A DNA stretch of 63,972 nt, filler included, from Globobulimina sp. (taxonomy: Eukaryota), in the NCBI GenBank assembly GCA_003354225.1. It is 24 parts of 24 records of this genome, joined end to end, with 100 filler letters (N's around TTAATTAATTAA, not from the genome) between each part and the next. Parts side by side here need not be neighbours in the genome. Positions count along the whole stretch, not along the records: positions 37,391 to 39,960 come from PIVH01005936.1; 23 more parts are not named here. One strand, given 5' to 3'. The position numbers and the translations under genes are program-made. Position 1 is the first letter of the stretch. Every line of letters starts with the position of its first letter. This document shows positions 16,228 through 39,960 of the stretch, in pieces. Under the pieces are notes generated by a model that saw only the letters and a list, made by a program, of their open reading frames with translations, did not search any database and was not told the origin of the DNA.

Positions 16228-16264
16228 TATTAGTTAGAAAAGATTTCTTGACAAAAAACCAAAT

Positions 16265-18430
16265 ATGAGCTTCGTCTCAGCATTTGAAAGCAGGCTGAAT
16301 CTAAATGCGGTCCAAGGATTAGTTAAGTTGGGCCATTACGAGAAGGAAGGTTTATCATTAGCGTTAGGAACTACATCATGGAATATTGTGATTATTTCTC
16401 CTCATTCAGCAATTCAAGAATCCGCATCTGGATCATCACTAAAAAAAAGATTAGCAATTAACCGTGATATTACCGCAATTGAAACAGCTAATTTTGATGA
16501 AAATATTGATATTTTATTAATTGGCACTACAACTAATTTGTTGGCATATAATGTTGAAACAAATTCGGATATATTTTACAAAGACATACCAGATGGAGTG
16601 AATTCAATTTTATTTTGTTCGGAATTGTCGCATTTTTCAAATGGTATAAAACAACCAATAGTTATTATTGGCGGTAATTGTTCAATTCAGGCATTTGATG
16701 GAATGGGAGAAGAAGTGTTTTGGACAGTTACTTCTGACAACGTTGTTTGTATGGTTTTGTGTGATATTGATAATGATGGAATAAATGAATTATTAATTGG
16801 TTCGCAAGATTGTACAATTAAGGCATTCAAAGGAGAACAAGTTATTTATTCAATAACAGAATCCGATGTAGTTACACATTTACAAAGTTTAGGCAATGAC
16901 TGTTATTCATATGCTTTAAAAAATGGAACCGTTGGAGTTTATGTTGGAAATACTAAATTATGGAAAATACAAAATAAAGAAAAAATAACTACGATGAATG
17001 CATATAATATTATTAGTGATAATGCACAAGAAACGATAAATTGTTTAATGGTTGGTTGGAGTAACGGTTTGATTGAAGCTCGAAAAATTGAAAACGGAAA
17101 AGTAATTTGGCGCAATTTAGTGATTGACGATAGATATTCAGACGAGAGCGTTGCTGGAATTGTTTGTGGTAATTTGCGCGGAAATGATAGAAGCAGAAAT
17201 TCCCAAATTATTACTGTATCAACGAAAGGTGTTTTAACTGCATGGATTCCAAAATTAAAATCAATTGATAATGAGAACGATTTTGAGAATAAAGAAGATA
17301 TAGAAACATTTATTATGGAAAGAGATGAGTTGCGCGACGAATTGAAATATTTACGATCAAATTTTAAAACCTTGTCTTCAGGAAATATGAATGATCCATC
17401 TCTTATTCCATCCAATACGGAAATATCATGTACTTTAACCCCATCCATTGAGAAAAAAAGATTATTATTAATTATGAATACAAATAATTGCACAGTAATT
17501 AAATCCGCAGTAATTTATGGCGATAAAGTATTTACGAATGGTTGTTTTATGTTAGTTCCATCAGAACCCAAATCATCAATAATTTTGCCATTAAAATTTG
17601 AAAAAGATTTGCAATGTAATTTATCAATCAAAGCCATTGTTGGTCATTTATCATCATCGCAAAACCATGTATTTGAACTTTCGCATCGAATTCCTCGCTT
17701 TGCATCTTATTTATATGTGGCAACGGCGTCAATTCCGAAAGGAAATCAAGCAATATCGTATACAACATTTGTTTGTTCGGAAAGAATAAACCGATTAATA
17801 TTGTGGCTGAATCAAGCATTTTTATTAGAATATGAACAAAATACCAAAAAAACAATTGATATCTCATTTGTGTCATTGCGAAATGGTGAATATATAACTT
17901 TGCAATGTGATCATAATCAAAATATTAAATTAATTACAGACAATATAAATTTGTGTGGCAATATAATACAAGATATTGCCCAATATTTAAGCATTACAGA
18001 ATTACAATCGGTATGTTATTTTAATGAACATTTTAAAGAGTTAAAAAATACCATGGTCAAAGTTGGGGAATATAATGATATTCGAAACAAATTAAGTGTT
18101 GATATTGCATCAAATACAGCAATTATTAAAAATTTAATTGTTAAATCACAAGATTCGAGAATTCAAAAAAATTATTCTTTATTTAAAAAACAATTTTCCC
18201 ATTTATTTGATATTAATAATGAAATGTGTTCAGAATTTATTAAGAGACAAAATAATCATAAAAATTTGATAAATTCATTAAAATTAATTAACAAAACAAT
18301 TGAACAAATCTCAAGATTGAGAGTTGGAAAATATCAAAAAATGACGGTTAGTTTAGCAAGACAAGCGGTCAAAACTAAGAATATTGATTCTTTAATAAAT
18401 GTGTTGCATTCTGTGTCATCTCAAGATTAA
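16265..18430 (+). CDS. BBS2: Bardet-Biedl syndrome 2 BBSome subunit
   Basis: LLAYNVETNSDIFYKDIPDGVN, IIGGNCSIQAFD..GEEVFWTVT.DNV, DIDNDGINELLIGSQD, HVFEL..RIPRF, ERINR...WLNQAF, RLRVGK; 721 aa. Confidence 0.95.
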   Translation: MSFVSAFESRLNLNAVQGLVKLGHYEKEGLSLALGTTSWNIVIISPHSAIQESASGSSLKKRLAINRDITAIETANFDENIDILLIGTTTNLLAYNVETNSDIFYKDIPDGVNSILFCSELSHFSNGIKQPIVIIGGNCSIQAFDGMGEEVFWTVTSDNVVCMVLCDIDNDGINELLIGSQDCTIKAFKGEQVIYSITESDVVTHLQSLGNDCYSYALKNGTVGVYVGNTKLWKIQNKEKITTMNAYNIISDNAQETINCLMVGWSNGLIEARKIENGKVIWRNLVIDDRYSDESVAGIVCGNLRGNDRSRNSQIITVSTKGVLTAWIPKLKSIDNENDFENKEDIETFIMERDELRDELKYLRSNFKTLSSGNMNDPSLIPSNTEISCTLTPSIEKKRLLLIMNTNNCTVIKSAVIYGDKVFTNGCFMLVPSEPKSSIILPLKFEKDLQCNLSIKAIVGHLSSSQNHVFELSHRIPRFASYLYVATASIPKGNQAISYTTFVCSERINRLILWLNQAFLLEYEQNTKKTIDISFVSLRNGEYITLQCDHNQNIKLITDNINLCGNIIQDIAQYLSITELQSVCYFNEHFKELKNTMVKVGEYNDIRNKLSVDIASNTAIIKNLIVKSQDSRIQKNYSLFKKQFSHLFDINNEMCSEFIKRQNNHKNLINSLKLINKTIEQISRLRVGKYQKMTVSLARQAVKTKNIDSLINVLHSVSSQD

Positions 18431-32398: not shown

Positions 32399-34620
32399 TT
32401 ACTTTAAGTTATTTAACAAGTCATGGATTCTCTGTTTAATTTTGTCATCGTCACAATTCGCTTTAATCGTTTGTAGCGCATCAAAATCCTTATCATCCAC
32501 GGCAACATCGACTGCATCGTTCCAGAATTTTAATTGGCACAGCCACTCTAACTTCTCATCAATATCCGATAATTTCAAAATATATTTCTTCGCATAGGCA
32601 GTCTTATCAATCTCTAGAAAAGCTTCAATAATCGGCAAATATCCAACCGGTGGCGGTCTCCGTACAGTGGTATTCTTATCAATATATCTCGACAACTTCT
32701 CCCATTGTTTACATTCCATATAAGATTTAATCAAAACAAACCACCATCGTCTATCCGAAATAAACAATTCTTTTTTGATTTTTTCCGCAAATCCCTCCTC
32801 CCCCAACTCCAACATGACAGATATCGTATCATTGACAGACAATCCTAATGTGGCTATGGCGCTATCCCCGCCACCGCCGCTTATCAGCATTTTCTTATCA
32901 AATTCCTTTTGAAATATAATCATTCTTTTCAAATCAGAGCACATTTGCACATTAAACTTATTCCGCACTTTCTCATAATTCTTAGTCGCACTCTCCAAAT
33001 AAGTAAAACATTTATTTGTGTCATCATTGTGATCCTCGCCAGAGCCCATATCGCCTAATCCAATGTTTCCATTCTTCAGCAACAATATACATTTTTTGAG
33101 ATTAATCCGCGACAATAAATGCATATTCTCCTGCTGATAGGGTATAAATTCATCCTTTGTGTTCGTCAAAAACTTATGTAACAATTGTTTGTAATGTTGA
33201 TTGCTTTCGTCTTCATTCTGCAACAAATCAATATAAGTTTGCAGCAATATATTATTCAACACCGCATTAAACGGCGAGTCTCCACTCTGGTTATTAATTT
33301 TATTATTTTCATATATGATTTCAAATAACTTATACCACGTTTTATTATCATTATATTTACTGATCAACTCAATCAATGTCTGATTAATCAAATTAATGTT
33401 CAACGAAACAATCGATTTCTTCAAAGCAACGATGTATTGTTCAAACTCAATCAGCGAATTAATTTGGATCTTGCTCCGTGGCTCATAGTCCAATAACAAC
33501 TTCGCCAAATCCACCGATCGTTTCTGTGCACAACGCGCTATTTTCGCGTAACTGAAATCATTGCTGAACTGCAATATTTTCTTGCGAATAATATCCACCA
33601 ACACGTGGTCAGTTATGTGTCTTTGGCTGCTTTCAATCTTACAAATGCACCAATGTTCCAACGCAGCATTCACACAAAATGATAAATTCAAATATTTACT
33701 GATCTTAATTGCTAATAAATGCTTCTTCCGATTGATCAATCGTTGCACCACAATCTGTGGCGTCAGAATTTCGAACTGCGTGTAGGTCAAAGGCATACCG
33801 ATATTAATATTGCGGATCGAATTCAACACTCTCAAAAACCGGCAAGTTTCCACAAACCGATCGCAATCAAATAACTCCTGATTGGGTATGAATAACTTTC
33901 CATACTTACAGGCACGTAATAACTTTATTTGATACTCTATAATCTCCAGCTCATACTTTGCTGCATCCAAACAATCCACCACTGCATCTTCCATGTTGTC
34001 CACCGATATCTGTCTCCTATGGCTGTCCGCTCGCGCATCGCCAATATCAAAGTCCTCAAAACTGTCATATAACAACGACGCCGGTTCACGCGAACCATAA
34101 CTAAATATATCCTGTGTACAAAAGGGCACAATGCTCAATACCTCGCAGGTTGTATTCGTTATAATGCGTATACTGTCGATCTCTGGTATTAATATGATGC
34201 GATTCGAGGCTGTCGCAGTAGAACTGGGGTATGGATACGGTATAAATTCATTACTCGAAGCCACAATGATCTGATCATTGTTGAATAATAACACCACTGC
34301 ATCGCTACCACACCACTCCATGGCCAACGGCTGTTTTTTAGCTTTCACGCTGAAATTACTGGCTTGTTTCTGGAAGTTACGCGTCGCCACAATTAAATTC
34401 ATATTCTCATCGAAGATGGCAATCATACGGCCATTGGCCGACACACACATTCGCATAATAGCTCCGCCCCGATGCTGTAATAAGTTGGTGATGTTACTGC
34501 GAGAGATACAATATATGCCACCATCGCCCGTCGATATTAATACTTGAATGTCGTTGTCGTCATCATTCGATTTGCTGTCATCATTTTTGTTGATATTTTT
34601 GTTGATTTCTGGGTTGATTA
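32399..34620 (-). CDS. VPS16: Vacuolar protein sorting 16 (HOPS/CORVET), 5'-truncated
   Basis: MEWCGSDAV, PEIDSIRI, IFSYGSREPASLL, LRVLNSIR..IGMPLTYTQF, RLINRKKHLLA, HWCICKI, LLDYEP, LSVNDT, SDRRWW, PPVGYLP. Confidence 0.93.
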
Positions 34621-34937: not shown

Positions 34938-37290
34938 ATGAGCAAATGGTTAAGCAGGTTATCCAAAGGAGGAGGTAATCCCTCAAAATCATCCAAATCC
35001 TCAAAACATACAAAAAAGCGACGCAAAGACTACGACGGTGATAATATCAACGACATGAAACGCGGCGGATCTGTAATGGACGAAGACAGCGATAATGAGG
35101 AGGAATACTACCACGACAATCATAACAACGCAGCATACAATGGCTATAATAACAACAACAACCACACCAACAACAACAACGCCACACATCAATATACAAA
35201 CAATGGAGACAATAAATACATGCCGCAACACATGACCGCCTCTCGCGCATTAACCAAATCCGGCAATAAATTGTACGTCGGCGACAAGATCTTATTAGCC
35301 AATAAACGCAGCGGTAAGGTCACGAGTTTAGGCCCCAAGCCCGACAAAGAAGGCATATGGGTACGCGTGGTCATGGACGCTCCGCAGGAATATTACTCCA
35401 AAGACAATCGCTCCTCGAAAAACAAGACCATTTGGGTGCCCATCCAACGCGTCGACAAGATACTGACCCAAGGCAACAAATTCGACCTCACCATCGATGA
35501 CCGCGTGACTGGGCGCAAAAAGGGCATCTCTGGCACTATAAAGTACGTCGGACCCACCCATTTCGAGAAGGGAGTGTGGTTTGGCGTGGCTCTCGACACT
35601 GCCAAGGGCAAAAATAACGGCACCGTCAAGAAGAAGTTCTACTTTCTATCTGAGCCAAACCATGGCGTAATGTTACCGTATAAACGATTAGGTATATTTC
35701 TGCTATTTATTTATTTTTACGCAATTTCGCAGATAGGTACTTATATATATTGCATTCTGTGAAAAGAGCACGAGAATCGCTCCAAGAAAGCCATCAAGAA
35801 AAGAAACGTCCGCTCGCGGTCCAACAATTTCGATAAGAATCGAGAGCGCGAAAAGAATGGCATGGCTCGCAACCATAGCTCGCACCAAAAAACACAAAGT
35901 GACGGCATTGGCATTGTCAACAAAGGCTATTTGACTCAGCAGTTGCAATTAGAGCAACATATTCTTGATCGAGAGCAACAGCAACAGCAACAACAGCAGA
36001 TTCTGGAAGAGATGAACCATCATCACACCAAACAATCGAACTCGAACTCGAATTCCAATTCAAATTCGCATTCAAATGACTATGCAGAGTATATCGAAGA
36101 CGACATCGACCACAACGACGAGAACAACCTGAATGGCACCAATAATAACAACAAGACGCCTTCGTCCGACAGCGAGGAGAGAATGTTTATGACTCCGTCC
36201 ACCTCTCCAAAGAAGAAAAAAGAAACTGTTGCGGTGAAGTTGACGCCGAAGGAGAAGACGCCGTTCGTGGGATGGATGAAATTGGTGTCCGGCGAGTTGG
36301 TGACGTCGGAGGACATGAAGCAGGAATCCATGGAAGTGACGCCTTCGCCGCAACCGCAGGCCTACAACTTGGAGGAGGACGAGCAGACCGTACTGATCTT
36401 GACGCAGTTCCTGGCCGAATTGCGCAAGTTTAGCGGCATCGAGAAGGAGTTGTTTGAGTCGAATTTGCCGTCGATTACCGAGGTGAACAAGGAGCAGCGA
36501 GAGAGCATCTTCATCGATAAGCTGTATCTATGCCAATGCAAATGCGACTTCTTCGATACCTCTGACGGTCAGATCGAGTTAATCGAGAAAAAGGAGAGAA
36601 TGCTATTAGAACTGTCCGAGTTCATAGCGCGCCACGTCTGGTTCAAAGAGTCTTTGTATGAGAAGTGTTTGGTGACAGTGTCTTGCAACTTATTTCGCGC
36701 CCTGCCATATCAGGATCGGCCGCCTGCTTTGTCCTTCTTCAACGACGAAGTGTTCGACAAAGACACCAACTTCGAGGACCCGGCCTGGAGGCACCTTAAA
36801 TTGGTGTACGATTTGACGTGGCGAGTGATCAATACACCGCAAGTGACGGCGGCCATGATGGAGAAGCATATGACGGGCAAGTTTTTGGGCAATTTGGTCG
36901 AGCTGTTTGCCTCTGAGGACCATCGCGAACGCGCCTATTTGATGATGATATTGCATAAAATCTACGGCCGCTGTCTCAAGTTACGGCCCTATATTATTGA
37001 GATTATGTCGTCGTACTTCTATCGTATGATATATTACGATGAATTCAAACACGTTAATGGTATTATTGAGTTATTGCAGATTATATGTGCTATTATACCC
37101 GGATTGACTGTGCCGGTCAAGGATTCCTGGCAATGTTTTGTACGCAATATATTGGTGCCGCTGCATAAGGTATGTCTTATTTGTGCGAATTTGCGTATAA
37201 TGATAGTGGATTTTGGACTTTTCAGTGTCGCGGACTTAAGAAGTTCTGGGAGCAGTTGACGCAATGTTGCGTCAATTATGTGGCCAAAGA
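34938..37290 (+). CDS. CAP-Gly domain(s) + PP2A B56 (B') regulatory subunit fusion; introns 35692-35766 and 37170-37225; 3'-truncated
   Basis: CAP-Gly: GTIKYVGPTHFEKGVWFGVALDTAKGKNNGTV. B56: FIDKL..C...CDF, NLFRALP, EDPAWRHLKLVY, LFASEDHRERAYL...LHKIYG, HVNGIIELL, ILVPLHK. The phase-1 intron joins the two ORFs in frame. Confidence 0.85.
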
Positions 37291-37454
37291 NNNNNNNNNN
37301 NNNNNNNNNNNNNNNNNNNNNNNNNNNNNNNNNNTTAATTAATTAANNNNNNNNNNNNNNNNNNNNNNNNNNNNNNNNNNNNNNNNNNNNTTCATCGACT
37401 ACTTTTATTGCCAGCTGGCTGGCAGTTATTGACACCCGGCTGTCAATTTTGTGA

Positions 37455-37622
37455 GGCGCCAAAACTGAACTCATATGAGTTGATTATTTCGAGATGTGTG
37501 GCGCCAAAACTGAACTCATGTGAGTTGATTATTTCGCGATGAGGCGCCAAAACTGAACTCATGTGAGTTGATTATTTCACGATGAGGTGCCATGTGTAAC
37601 TTTTCTAAACTCATGTGAGTTG
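37455..37622. repeat. Tandem repeat, 43-45 bp unit, 3 copies plus a partial, with palindromic core AACTCA(TA/TG)TGAGTT
   Basis: ggcgccaaaactgaactcat(a/g)tgagttgattatttc at 37455, 37500 and 37543. Confidence 0.9.
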
Positions 37623-38147: not shown

Positions 38148-38310
38148 GTACAATACACTATTTAGTTTTCTTTATATATCCTATACAAAACAATACACTT
38201 TTTAGTTTTCTTTATATATCCTATACAAAACAATACACTTTTTAGTTTTCTTTTATATCCTATACAAAACAATACACTTTTTAGTTTTCTTTGTATATCC
38301 TGTACAACAA
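38148..38310. repeat. Tandem repeat, about 40 bp unit, about 4 copies
   Basis: atacaaaacaatacactttttagttttctttatatatcct repeated. Confidence 0.9.
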
Positions 38311-38348: not shown

Positions 38349-39743
38349 TTACCAAGCATAGAACCTAGATTTGTTTTGCTTATTTGTTAGTTTTCGGTAC
38401 AATTCTTGATTGTAACTTTCATCACTATCGTCACTTTCATAATCTCCATCCTCAGTGTCTTCGTCTGAAACTTTGTTTTCTGCATCAGATTCAAGTTCCC
38501 ATTCATCACTGTCATTGTCAGTAATATCATCATTGCTGTCATGCTCGGCACTATCAACCTCGTTGTTGTTGCCAGGGCTGTCACCATCACTGTCATTGTT
38601 AGCACTGCCATCATTGGTATCATTGTCAGAGCTATCATAATCATTCAGATGTTCATCACTCTCAAAGTTTGCTTTCTTGTTTGTAATTTCTTCTGCAGTT
38701 GTACTTCTTTTTGACTTGGTTTTTAATTTGGGTTGTGTACTGTTTGCTGAATGAAATTCTGGATTTTCACTGCTCAACTGTATTTCCTCAAAAATATCAG
38801 TGCGAAGTCGCAGGAATTCTGGAGTAGCAGTGCACAAGTCAACAAGCACATATCCATAACGTTTCTTTGATTCCTGATCATAAACAGAACGCAGTGCCTT
38901 CTGTTTGCCGAGCTGAGAACCGAGAATTGAAATTTGTTGCACCATTCGAGGGGATTTCAACAAGAAGAAGTATGCTGTGTTTGCAGATATTATTCTGCTG
39001 CTGGGCCAGGGCCCAAATATGAAATGCAGCAACAGTACAATACTACAGTTCTTGTGACGGGCTATGGTGAAAACATGGGCCATTTCTTTGCTACTGGCAG
39101 CGGAAATTGAGTTATCATCAATTATAATTAATGTTTGGCCTCCATTAGGGTCAGCCATAACATCGAGGTCTGATTCAGTAACTATGGATTGTTTTATAAA
39201 ATCGCATCTTATTCCTTGAATGGCAAGTCTTTCCTTTAGCTTCCCATATTCAGCCTGGAAACCTAAAAGTTTATTTGTATAACAAGAAGAAAAAATGTAA
39301 AGAAAAGTGCTTACAACTGTAAAGGAAAACAATGTGGGTTGGCACAGGATTGTACATTTTATTGGCGTTTTCAAGCGTTTTCATCAGAAGACTAGTTTTG
39401 CCCTGAAGCATCAGTTGAAAGATACTCGGTGAAACTCGTGAAAAATTCAAACTCACACTCTGACTGGCTCCAGCATAGATAAAGTTGTGTGGTAATTGAA
39501 GCCGTTTGTCAAAGGCTTGTGAAGGAGTCAAAGATGAAAGCAAATTATCTTTATTGTTTGAGGAAATATTTGATGGTTGAACGTTTGATTTTGATAAACC
39601 TTGATGGGCATTCTGTACATGTCTCTTGAAATTATACTTCCGATTTCCTATAATAGTTTAAGAATTACCACAATTAGATAGCAATAATCAAATTTCTCAC
39701 CAAATGATTTGTCACATAAATTGCAATGGTATTTGGGAGCCAT
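38349..39743 (-). CDS. C2H2 zinc finger + Polinton/adintovirus-type A32-like (FtsK-HerA) packaging ATPase + acidic tail; introns 39648-39700, 39403-39456 and 39263-39314
   Basis: Spliced product reads MAPKYHCNLCDKSFGNRKYNFKRHVQNAH...FDKRLQLPHNFIYAGASQSGKT...IVFLYSCFQ...LIIIDD...FTIARHKNCSIVLLLH..F...RIISANTAYFFLLKSPR...QISILGSQL...YGYVLVDL....PEFLRLRTDIF. Confidence 0.85.
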
Positions 39744-39839: not shown

Positions 39840-39960
39840 ATGCTCATTTTAGCTATATTCTGCTCATTCTGCTCCCTATTCTGCTCATTCTGCTCCTGTT
39901 TGCTCCATATTAGGCCCATTATGCTCATTTTGCTCCATATTCTGCTCATTCTGCTCATTT
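39840..39960. repeat. Minisatellite, 9-12 bp TGCTC-based unit
   Basis: tgctcattc / tgctccatat repeated up to the contig end. Confidence 0.85.

Follow-up and report, generated by a model that had tools for sequence, protein, structure and literature searches.

A32-like ATPases fill capsids with genome in Polinton/Maverick-type viruses, virophages, adenoviruses, and giant viruses, and packaging ATPases are hallmark genes for tracing Polinton/Maverick-type viruses in eukaryote genomes. These enzymes share a conserved arginine (the arginine finger) before the sensor strand, on which the sensor residue is polar and usually glutamine. Adenovirus IVa2 couples its ATPase to sequence-specific binding of repeated packaging motifs; to our knowledge it has no C2H2 finger and recognizes DNA through other parts of the protein and partner proteins. 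Here we describe a gene for an ATPase of this kind in a 63,972-base stretch of Globobulimina sp. DNA (GenBank assembly GCA_003354225.1; “the window” hereafter denotes this whole stretch), which consists of 24 contigs of ∼2,570 bp joined by N44-TTAATTAATTAA-N44 spacers. The true context of the ATPase gene is one 2,570-bp contig (37391–39960, PIVH01005936.1), 2.57 kb in all. With a probability of roughly 0.7, we read it as a genuine spliced eukaryotic gene encoding an N-terminal C2H2-type element, an A32-like P-loop ATPase (FtsK-HerA), and an acidic tail. Our verdict is that it represents what appears to be a virus-derived multi-copy gene family, of probable viral ancestry, in a eukaryote with introns of ∼50 nucleotides (nt).

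The gene lies on the minus strand, with its ATG at 39743 and its stop codon at 38351–38349. Excision of three GT-AG intervals (53, 54, and 52 nt) leaves 1,236 nt, equal to 411 codons plus the stop, and joins GASQS to GKT to form the Walker A motif. Exon 1 (39701–39743) contains the ATG and the Cys pair of a C2H2 finger (MAPKYHCNLCDKSF), with a MAP.. start shared with related loci L003, L009, and L010. The 53-nt interval that follows (“intron 1”, 39648–39700, GTGAGA..TATAG) is a remnant of the sequence that encoded the ancestral fingers; it has either become a neo-intron or decayed, two possibilities weighed below. Exon 2 (39457–39647) encodes the finger His pair (NRKYNFKRHVQNAH) and, beyond a linker, Walker A as far as GASQS (39471–39457), and includes a block (FDKRLQLPHNFIYAGASQS) kept in every locus. 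Intron 2 (39403–39456, 54 nt, GTGAGT..TTCAG) falls within Walker A, exon 3 (39315–39402) supplies GKT (39402–39394) and the post-P-loop helix, and intron 3 (39263–39314, 52 nt, GTAAGC..TTTTAG) lies in phase 1. Exon 4 with the stop codon (38349–39262) carries Walker B IIIDD (39128–39114), ARH (39062–39054), the sensor His in LLLHFIF (39035–39015), RIISANTAY (38996–38970), YGYVLVDL (38858–38835), and RLRTDIF (38810–38790), and ends in a short conserved C-terminal helix and the residues FYAW (38420–38352). All six motifs had been named in the original prediction, whose coordinates, three GT..AG intervals, and Walker A reassembly were reproduced exactly on recomputation. The exon 4 tail of ∼130 amino acids is acidic (39 D/E vs. 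13 K/R); in a structure model of exon 4 it is disordered, with the terminal helix at modest confidence, and relatives P0007, P0010, and P0016 have similar acidic tails and a basic terminal helix.

The evidence that this is a spliced gene comes mainly from introns 2 and 3. Related DNA was found at 14 loci in two metagenome assemblies (11 distinct loci in one and three in the other), 13 of which cover the region of these introns, L002 starting too late to show either. Both introns sit at identical codon positions in 13/13 loci, with lengths of 46–61 nt for intron 2 and 48–56 nt, at the same phase, for intron 3. Together with the window’s two, the resulting 28 introns span 46–61 nt, all have GT-AG ends, and 19 use the donor GTAAGT; their mean GC content is 0.275, vs. 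0.35–0.39 in the window exons, and most are frame-shifting or stop-containing. After in silico splicing, a 197-codon core is open in all 14 copies (the window’s included), and the spliced window protein aligns unbroken over both junctions to relative P0031 (46% identity, 210 amino acids, E 4e-67) and likewise to 16 other relatives. The features expected of U2-type introns, i.e., GT..AG ends, a need for removal to keep the frame, and a conserved position, were present in both. By comparison of genomic copies, introns 2 and 3 can be taken as established to be real and old, their conservation going far beyond chance, and we infer that they are spliced in vivo.

Relatives P0031, P0033, P0036, P0038, P0041, and P0042 (36–46% identity) are single open reading frames (ORFs) across both intron sites. 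Because these relatives read through both sites, introns 2 and 3 were probably gained in the lineage of the window family, provided that the database entries concerned were each called as one contiguous ORF. Exon 4, used as a protein query, retrieved 26 closer relatives (49–83% identity), all on contigs of ≤3 kb and all of them ORF fragments beginning in or past the introns. Searches for uninterrupted ORFs truncate intron-bearing genes in this way (26/26 relatives are fragments), and matches to such fragments should not count as evidence of a virus. The database protein P0007 reads through intron 3 with a tryptophan where L006 (around 880–900) has TGA; either the source read TGA as Trp, or it used a variant contig.

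The copies are diverged (48–83% protein identity), with dN/dS (the ratio of nonsynonymous to synonymous change) of 0.05–0.15 in all non-saturated pairs, a median proportion of synonymous differences (pS) of 0.79, and a median proportion of nonsynonymous differences (pN) of 0.18 over 91 pairs, values that point to strong purifying selection. In the one sequencing run that carries the ATPase contig, probably from the source sample, contigs were low in depth and without joints. A conserved 86-nt bin had a depth of 26.7, vs. ∼4.5 beside it (∼6x), and on either side of it the contigs diverge; two further runs from the same sample gave no cover of the contig. Saturated synonymous change with few nonsynonymous changes, 11 loci in a single assembly, and the deep 86-nt bin together indicate that the family is old, multi-copy, and functional and does not consist of recent copies of a transposon. 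Some loci also have dispersed repeats in common that are more similar than the genes themselves. A 443-nt downstream stretch shared by L008 (1637–2051) and L010 (1910–2349), for example, is 86% identical, the genes only 78%, and probably belongs to a repeat dispersed in the host genome.

Support for the A32-like (FtsK-HerA) identity of the encoded protein is indirect and comes from its relatives, from a language-model search, and from a structure model. A family profile matched 3,136 proteins at E ≤ 1e-3 among 1.8 billion representatives. Forty-four of these were scanned with Pfam, of which 22 reached the Pox_A32 gathering score and 31 matched Pox_A32 at E ≤ 1e-3, with side matches to Adeno_IVa2 and FtsK; a cluster look-up of 10 relatives returned uninformative names. 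The nearest ESM Atlas clusters in the language-model search carried Pox_A32, with scores of 0.98 and 0.97. An AlphaFold model of P0031 (predicted local distance difference test, pLDDT, 91.5) matched adenovirus IVa2, giant-virus A32-like ATPases, the mavirus ATPase, an adintovirus FtsK-like protein, and Sputnik V3; viral packaging ATPases made up all of the 15 best named structural matches. Among solved structures in the PDB the best match was the packaging NTPase B204 of Sulfolobus turreted icosahedral virus (STIV) and STIV2, followed by RecA, KaiC, and F1. The best matches are thus to viral-type and not cellular ATPases, which the original prediction had named as a check on itself, and its claim that the gene has introns and encodes an A32-like ATPase with a C2H2 element at the N-terminus is supported through relatives.

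Once introns 2 and 3 are out, the catalytic set is complete: Walker A (GASQSGKT, after removal of intron 2), Walker B (IIIDD), the Arg-His motif, and the sensor His. Of 175 aligned rows of relatives, 169 have the Walker B aspartate pair, and the family alignment shows no variation at R68, H69, or the sensor His. The original prediction had noted His in place of the usual Gln; this is no peculiarity of the gene, since 77 of the 175 rows have H as the sensor and 91 have Q, and all 37 best-scoring rows have H. The sensor His is a polar replacement that marks a clade, and no defect. ATPase and DNA-binding activities are predicted by analogy with A32-like ATPases and IVa2.

Finger domains recur in relatives at several distances. 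Pfam zf-C2H2-type families were matched in 8/8 homologue N-termini scanned, with PF00096 at its cut-off in six. Among the 44 more distant relatives, six have a zf-C2H2 match, five of them N-terminal or upstream of the ATPase and the sixth (P0054) after it, and one more has a FLYWCH finger. One ESM Atlas cluster carries the automatic name “Poxvirus A32 protein/Zinc finger, C2H2 type”. Because it is seen in distant relatives and in this automatic naming, the finger-ATPase fusion is taken to be widespread; our literature searches found no paper describing a zinc-finger-fused A32-like ATPase.

Intron 1 differs from the other two. In all nine loci that cover the whole N-terminus (L003, L004, L006, L008–L012, and L015), this region consists of two adjacent C2H2 fingers encoded by one uninterrupted exon, and in three more loci, truncated by the contig start, the second finger is unbroken. 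A DNA alignment against six homologues placed a 28-column gap in the window copy in the middle of the finger module, and the 53 nt of “intron 1” align to the relatives’ coding sequence and, in the downstream frame, contain a Cys-to-Ser change and a TAA. The original prediction had this intron splitting a finger; instead, an ancestral module of two fingers lost 28 nt, and the interval now stands in place of its middle part. With the 53 nt retained, the frame from the ATG stops after ∼31 codons, and there is no in-frame ATG between that early stop and Walker A. With the 53 nt removed, the Cys pair of finger 1 meets the His pair of finger 2 to give C-x2-C-x13-H-x4-H, and exon 2 alone had no zinc-finger match in Pfam. 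Of the features expected of a U2-type intron, ends and length fit, and the position is not conserved.

From these data “intron 1” could be a new intron that arose by intronization following a deletion, or else the initial lesion in a copy that is dying. The second alternative, in which the window copy was recently disabled by the frame-shifting 28-nt loss and “intron 1” is a chance GT..AG pair, is the strongest rival to a functional window copy, and we hold it to be quite possible at somewhat less than even odds. It would account for the unbroken finger region of the nine homologues, for the match of the 53 nt to coding sequence and the TAA within them, and for the position of the donor GTGAGA in a former Gly-Glu-Lys coding stretch. 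Under a splice-donor position weight matrix built on intron positions only, this donor is weak, with 5.6% of background GT sites scoring as high, and in leave-one-out scoring its value of 4.0 is lower than that of any of the 28 true donors (minimum 4.8). The x13 spacing is also one residue above the x12 counted in both L003 fingers and in the single finger of P0070. Against this alternative, the remaining gene is open over 397 codons, its freely evolving tail included, and “intron 1” has a good acceptor, a score equaled by 0.7% of background AG sites; its length (53 nt) and GC content (0.25) fit the family introns. Among 10 frame-restoring GT..AG pairs, the one at 39700–39648 stands alone in having a good acceptor, and its use preserves the finger’s His half. 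A single finger, moreover, works in the more distant relatives P0056 and P0070.

The next alternative concerns what lies around the gene. Spacers between genes in Maverick-type elements are usually short. On the window contig the gene is flanked by 958 nt downstream and 217 nt upstream, which hold tandem repeats, and we searched these flanks together with those of seven related loci (0.2–1.1 kb; at most 1,074 nt on the downstream side and 757 nt on the upstream side). None of the 67 flank ORFs of at least 45 amino acids on these eight contigs had a Pfam domain at the cut-off of any family; no polymerase, integrase, capsid gene, or protease was found on the 2,570-bp contig or in the flanks of the seven loci, and the flanks of L009 and L010 have no ORF longer than 115 amino acids. 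Among the 49 ORFs of the window, including those of its 23 other contigs, there was no Polinton gene, and terminal inverted repeats were likewise absent from those contigs. No inverted repeat brackets the ATPase gene within the contigs, and element ends, if any, lie beyond them. Given the short spacers of such elements, gene-free flanks in all eight contigs mildly favor stand-alone genes.

It could nonetheless be that a complete Maverick/Polinton (adintovirus-like) element is integrated here, that the gene encodes its packaging ATPase, and that the 2.57-kb contig stops short of its other genes. ATPases of mavirus and an adintovirus are among the closest named folds, many diverged yet intact copies are what would be expected of an active virus-like element, and repeat arrays and hairpins near the gene (described below) could be element termini. 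Intron-like insertions also have a precedent in integrated eupolintoviral elements of dinoflagellates, which are described as carrying introners (PMC12166617). Apart from the gene-free flanks, the lack of a bracketing inverted repeat, and the absence of Polinton genes from the window ORFs, it counts against such an element that intact vertebrate Mavericks are reported as intronless (PMC8097293), and that the family is absent from IMG/VR. Single-protein scans of IMG/VR with P0033 and P0031 found nothing, nor did two scans of prokaryote genome contigs; the one candidate from the family-alignment scan of IMG/VR (L001) was a phage contig with the word LLLHFIF in an off-frame ORF, and was set aside as chance. 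P0033 and P0064 lie on longer contigs (22.6 and 9.2 kb, respectively). We consider a complete element unlikely, though it keeps a real share of the probability, and the “Polinton/adintovirus” label of the original prediction is somewhat disfavored as a description of the genomic element; gene-free flanks and conserved introns lead us to favor stand-alone genes, as roughly twice as likely as Maverick-type elements.

The two remaining alternatives fare much worse. The original prediction had noted that intron 2, within Walker A, is in frame and stop-free, which holds for the window copy (54 nt), and that its retention would leave a full-length protein with a broken P-loop. Regulated retention would give a full-length protein with an 18-residue P-loop insert, acting as a dominant-negative or non-catalytic form. 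However, intron 2 is both in frame and stop-free in the window copy only (1/14 copies), being frame-shifting in 10 and stop-carrying in three of the other 13 loci. Because this state is not conserved among copies, chance explains it best; the isoform finds no comparative support and is very improbable. An ordinary cellular P-loop ATPase of no viral ancestry, to which weak side matches of relatives to generic AAA, NACHT, and ABC models might point, is the least credible of all, since the dominant and best family matches are Pox_A32, Adeno_IVa2, and FtsK, the 15 top-ranked named folds are viral packaging ATPases to the last, and a viral packaging NTPase outranks RecA, KaiC, and F1 among solved structures.

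Several observations weigh against our preferred reading of a genuine spliced gene for a finger-bearing, virus-derived ATPase. Exon 4 alone scored 16.2 bits (E 0.0075) against Pfam Pox_A32 (PF04665), below the gathering score of 22.8, and the family assignment of the window protein is transitive via its relatives. The structure model of the window’s exon 4 was poor (pLDDT 60.1) and was not used in the fold search. PHROGs gave no match, and a profile search of PDB sequences returned chance-level matches only, the best (E 0.054) to a sortase. If the 53 nt of “intron 1” stay unspliced, the 5′ end of the window copy may be dead. Finally, the contigs are all ≤3 kb, and the stand-alone interpretation rests on flanks of 0.2–1.1 kb.

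If the gene is what we take it to be, a viral packaging ATPase would have been its ancestor, with two introns gained after the split from the intronless relatives. The host-spliced mRNA would then encode a ring-forming translocase of double-stranded DNA, by analogy with A32-like ATPases and IVa2, and the finger or fingers would, again by analogy, load the translocase onto specific DNA, much as IVa2 is loaded onto packaging repeats. A bolder and, in our estimation, rather improbable extension is that a Maverick-type packaging motor has become a stand-alone, finger-guided DNA translocase, perhaps with its own cis sites, either in a minimal hairpin-ended mobile or satellite element with the packaging motor as its sole gene or in a host-domesticated family. 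In the domesticated case it could, for example, interfere with the genome packaging of invading viruses.

Three tandem repeats occupy the flanks of the gene on the window contig. Immediately 3′ of the stop codon are four copies of a 40-nt unit (38150–38307) at a depth of ∼88, vs. ∼5 in the gene, in the run that carries the contig; from this raised depth, the repeat is probably a high-copy dispersed satellite. A 43–45-nt tandem repeat (37450–37619) with four CTCAT[A/G]TGAG motifs, one of them a perfect palindrome, is found on the 3′ side of the gene at a distance of ∼730–900 nt, with 59 nt left to the contig end, and the motif has five matches vs. 0.10 expected. This repeat sits where a further tandem gene copy would begin, and resembles arrays of palindromes that precede the gene in L003, L004, and L008–L011. 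Upstream of the ATG, at ∼110–215 nt and extending to the contig end, is a 9/21-nt tandem repeat of ATTCTGCTC units (39856–39959).

The arrays of those six related loci are made of perfect 16-bp palindromes (CTCATATATGAG-type cores) with a period of ∼31 nt, 80–100 nt upstream of the ATG (L003:256–673, L009:447–525, L010:356–466, L011:1–139, L008:2–37, and L004:37–93). Their motifs (TCCTCATATATGAGGA, CCCTCATATATGAGGG, TCCACATATATGTGGA, and GCCACAAATTTGTGGC) vary by paralogue group. In L009 (1–184) and L010 (1–231), long GC-rich hairpins reach the first base of the contig, with arms of 72 nt (100% complementary) and 89 nt (99%), respectively. Folded as DNA, the hairpin had a free energy of −143 kcal/mol (z −29.5), and its two-armed tip has two small palindromes whose order is inverted between L009 and L010 (flip/flop). 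These hairpins might represent fold-back repeats or hairpin ends, or might be produced by the assembly; palindromes and hairpins alike may be putative binding sites, promoter elements, or element ends.

Neighboring contigs of the window (16238–18427, 32402–34618, 35763–37256, and others) have long uninterrupted ORFs, and their genes, which include BBS2, Vps16, an ABC transporter, and a PP2A B56 subunit with poly-Q/poly-NS runs, are of an ordinary protist type. These contigs look like those of an AT-rich, intron-poor, ciliated or flagellated protist, in contrast to the intron-bearing ATPase contig. The GC content and trinucleotide composition of the ATPase contig showed nothing remarkable relative to its window neighbors; that it comes from a different organism than they do is plausible.

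The family keeps its motor under strong selection together with fixed introns, a finger module, and a long tail, with no viral partner within ∼1 kb. If the stand-alone interpretation is true, a host or a minimal element would have put a capsid-filling motor to new use. The best solved match to the P0031 model, STIV/STIV2 B204 (PDB 4KFT, 4KFS, and 4R2H; E 1.4e-6, template modeling score 0.53–0.62), is an archaeal virus protein with 12–16% identity that has neither finger nor tail. The poxvirus A32 and giant-virus A32-like ATPases (PF04665) constitute the Pfam family reached by the relatives and by the ESM Atlas neighbors, and here too identity is very low, at 9–18% in structural alignments. Adenovirus IVa2 took structural ranks 2 and 11 for the P0031 model, and relatives match Pfam Adeno_IVa2. 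The dinoflagellate eupolintoviral elements offer a precedent for intron-like sequences in Maverick/Polinton-like genes; their introners are recent mobile insertions in full elements (PMC12166617), whereas here the introns are fixed at the same codons and synonymous sites are saturated. Also among the closest systems are the packaging ATPases of Polintons/Mavericks, adintoviruses (Eupolintoviridae), and virophages, which share the same A32-like core of ∼210 amino acids (additional strand catalytic glutamate, ASCE, type). Blocks in common with the Polinton-type ATPase are Walker A, hhhhDD, the R-H motif, the sensor residue, ..N..Y..L, and YGY.L.D. Unlike the Polinton-type genes, those of the window family were seen without partner genes or terminal inverted repeats nearby, and they are set apart by two position-conserved introns, an N-terminal C2H2 module, a long acidic tail, and a sensor that is His and not Gln.

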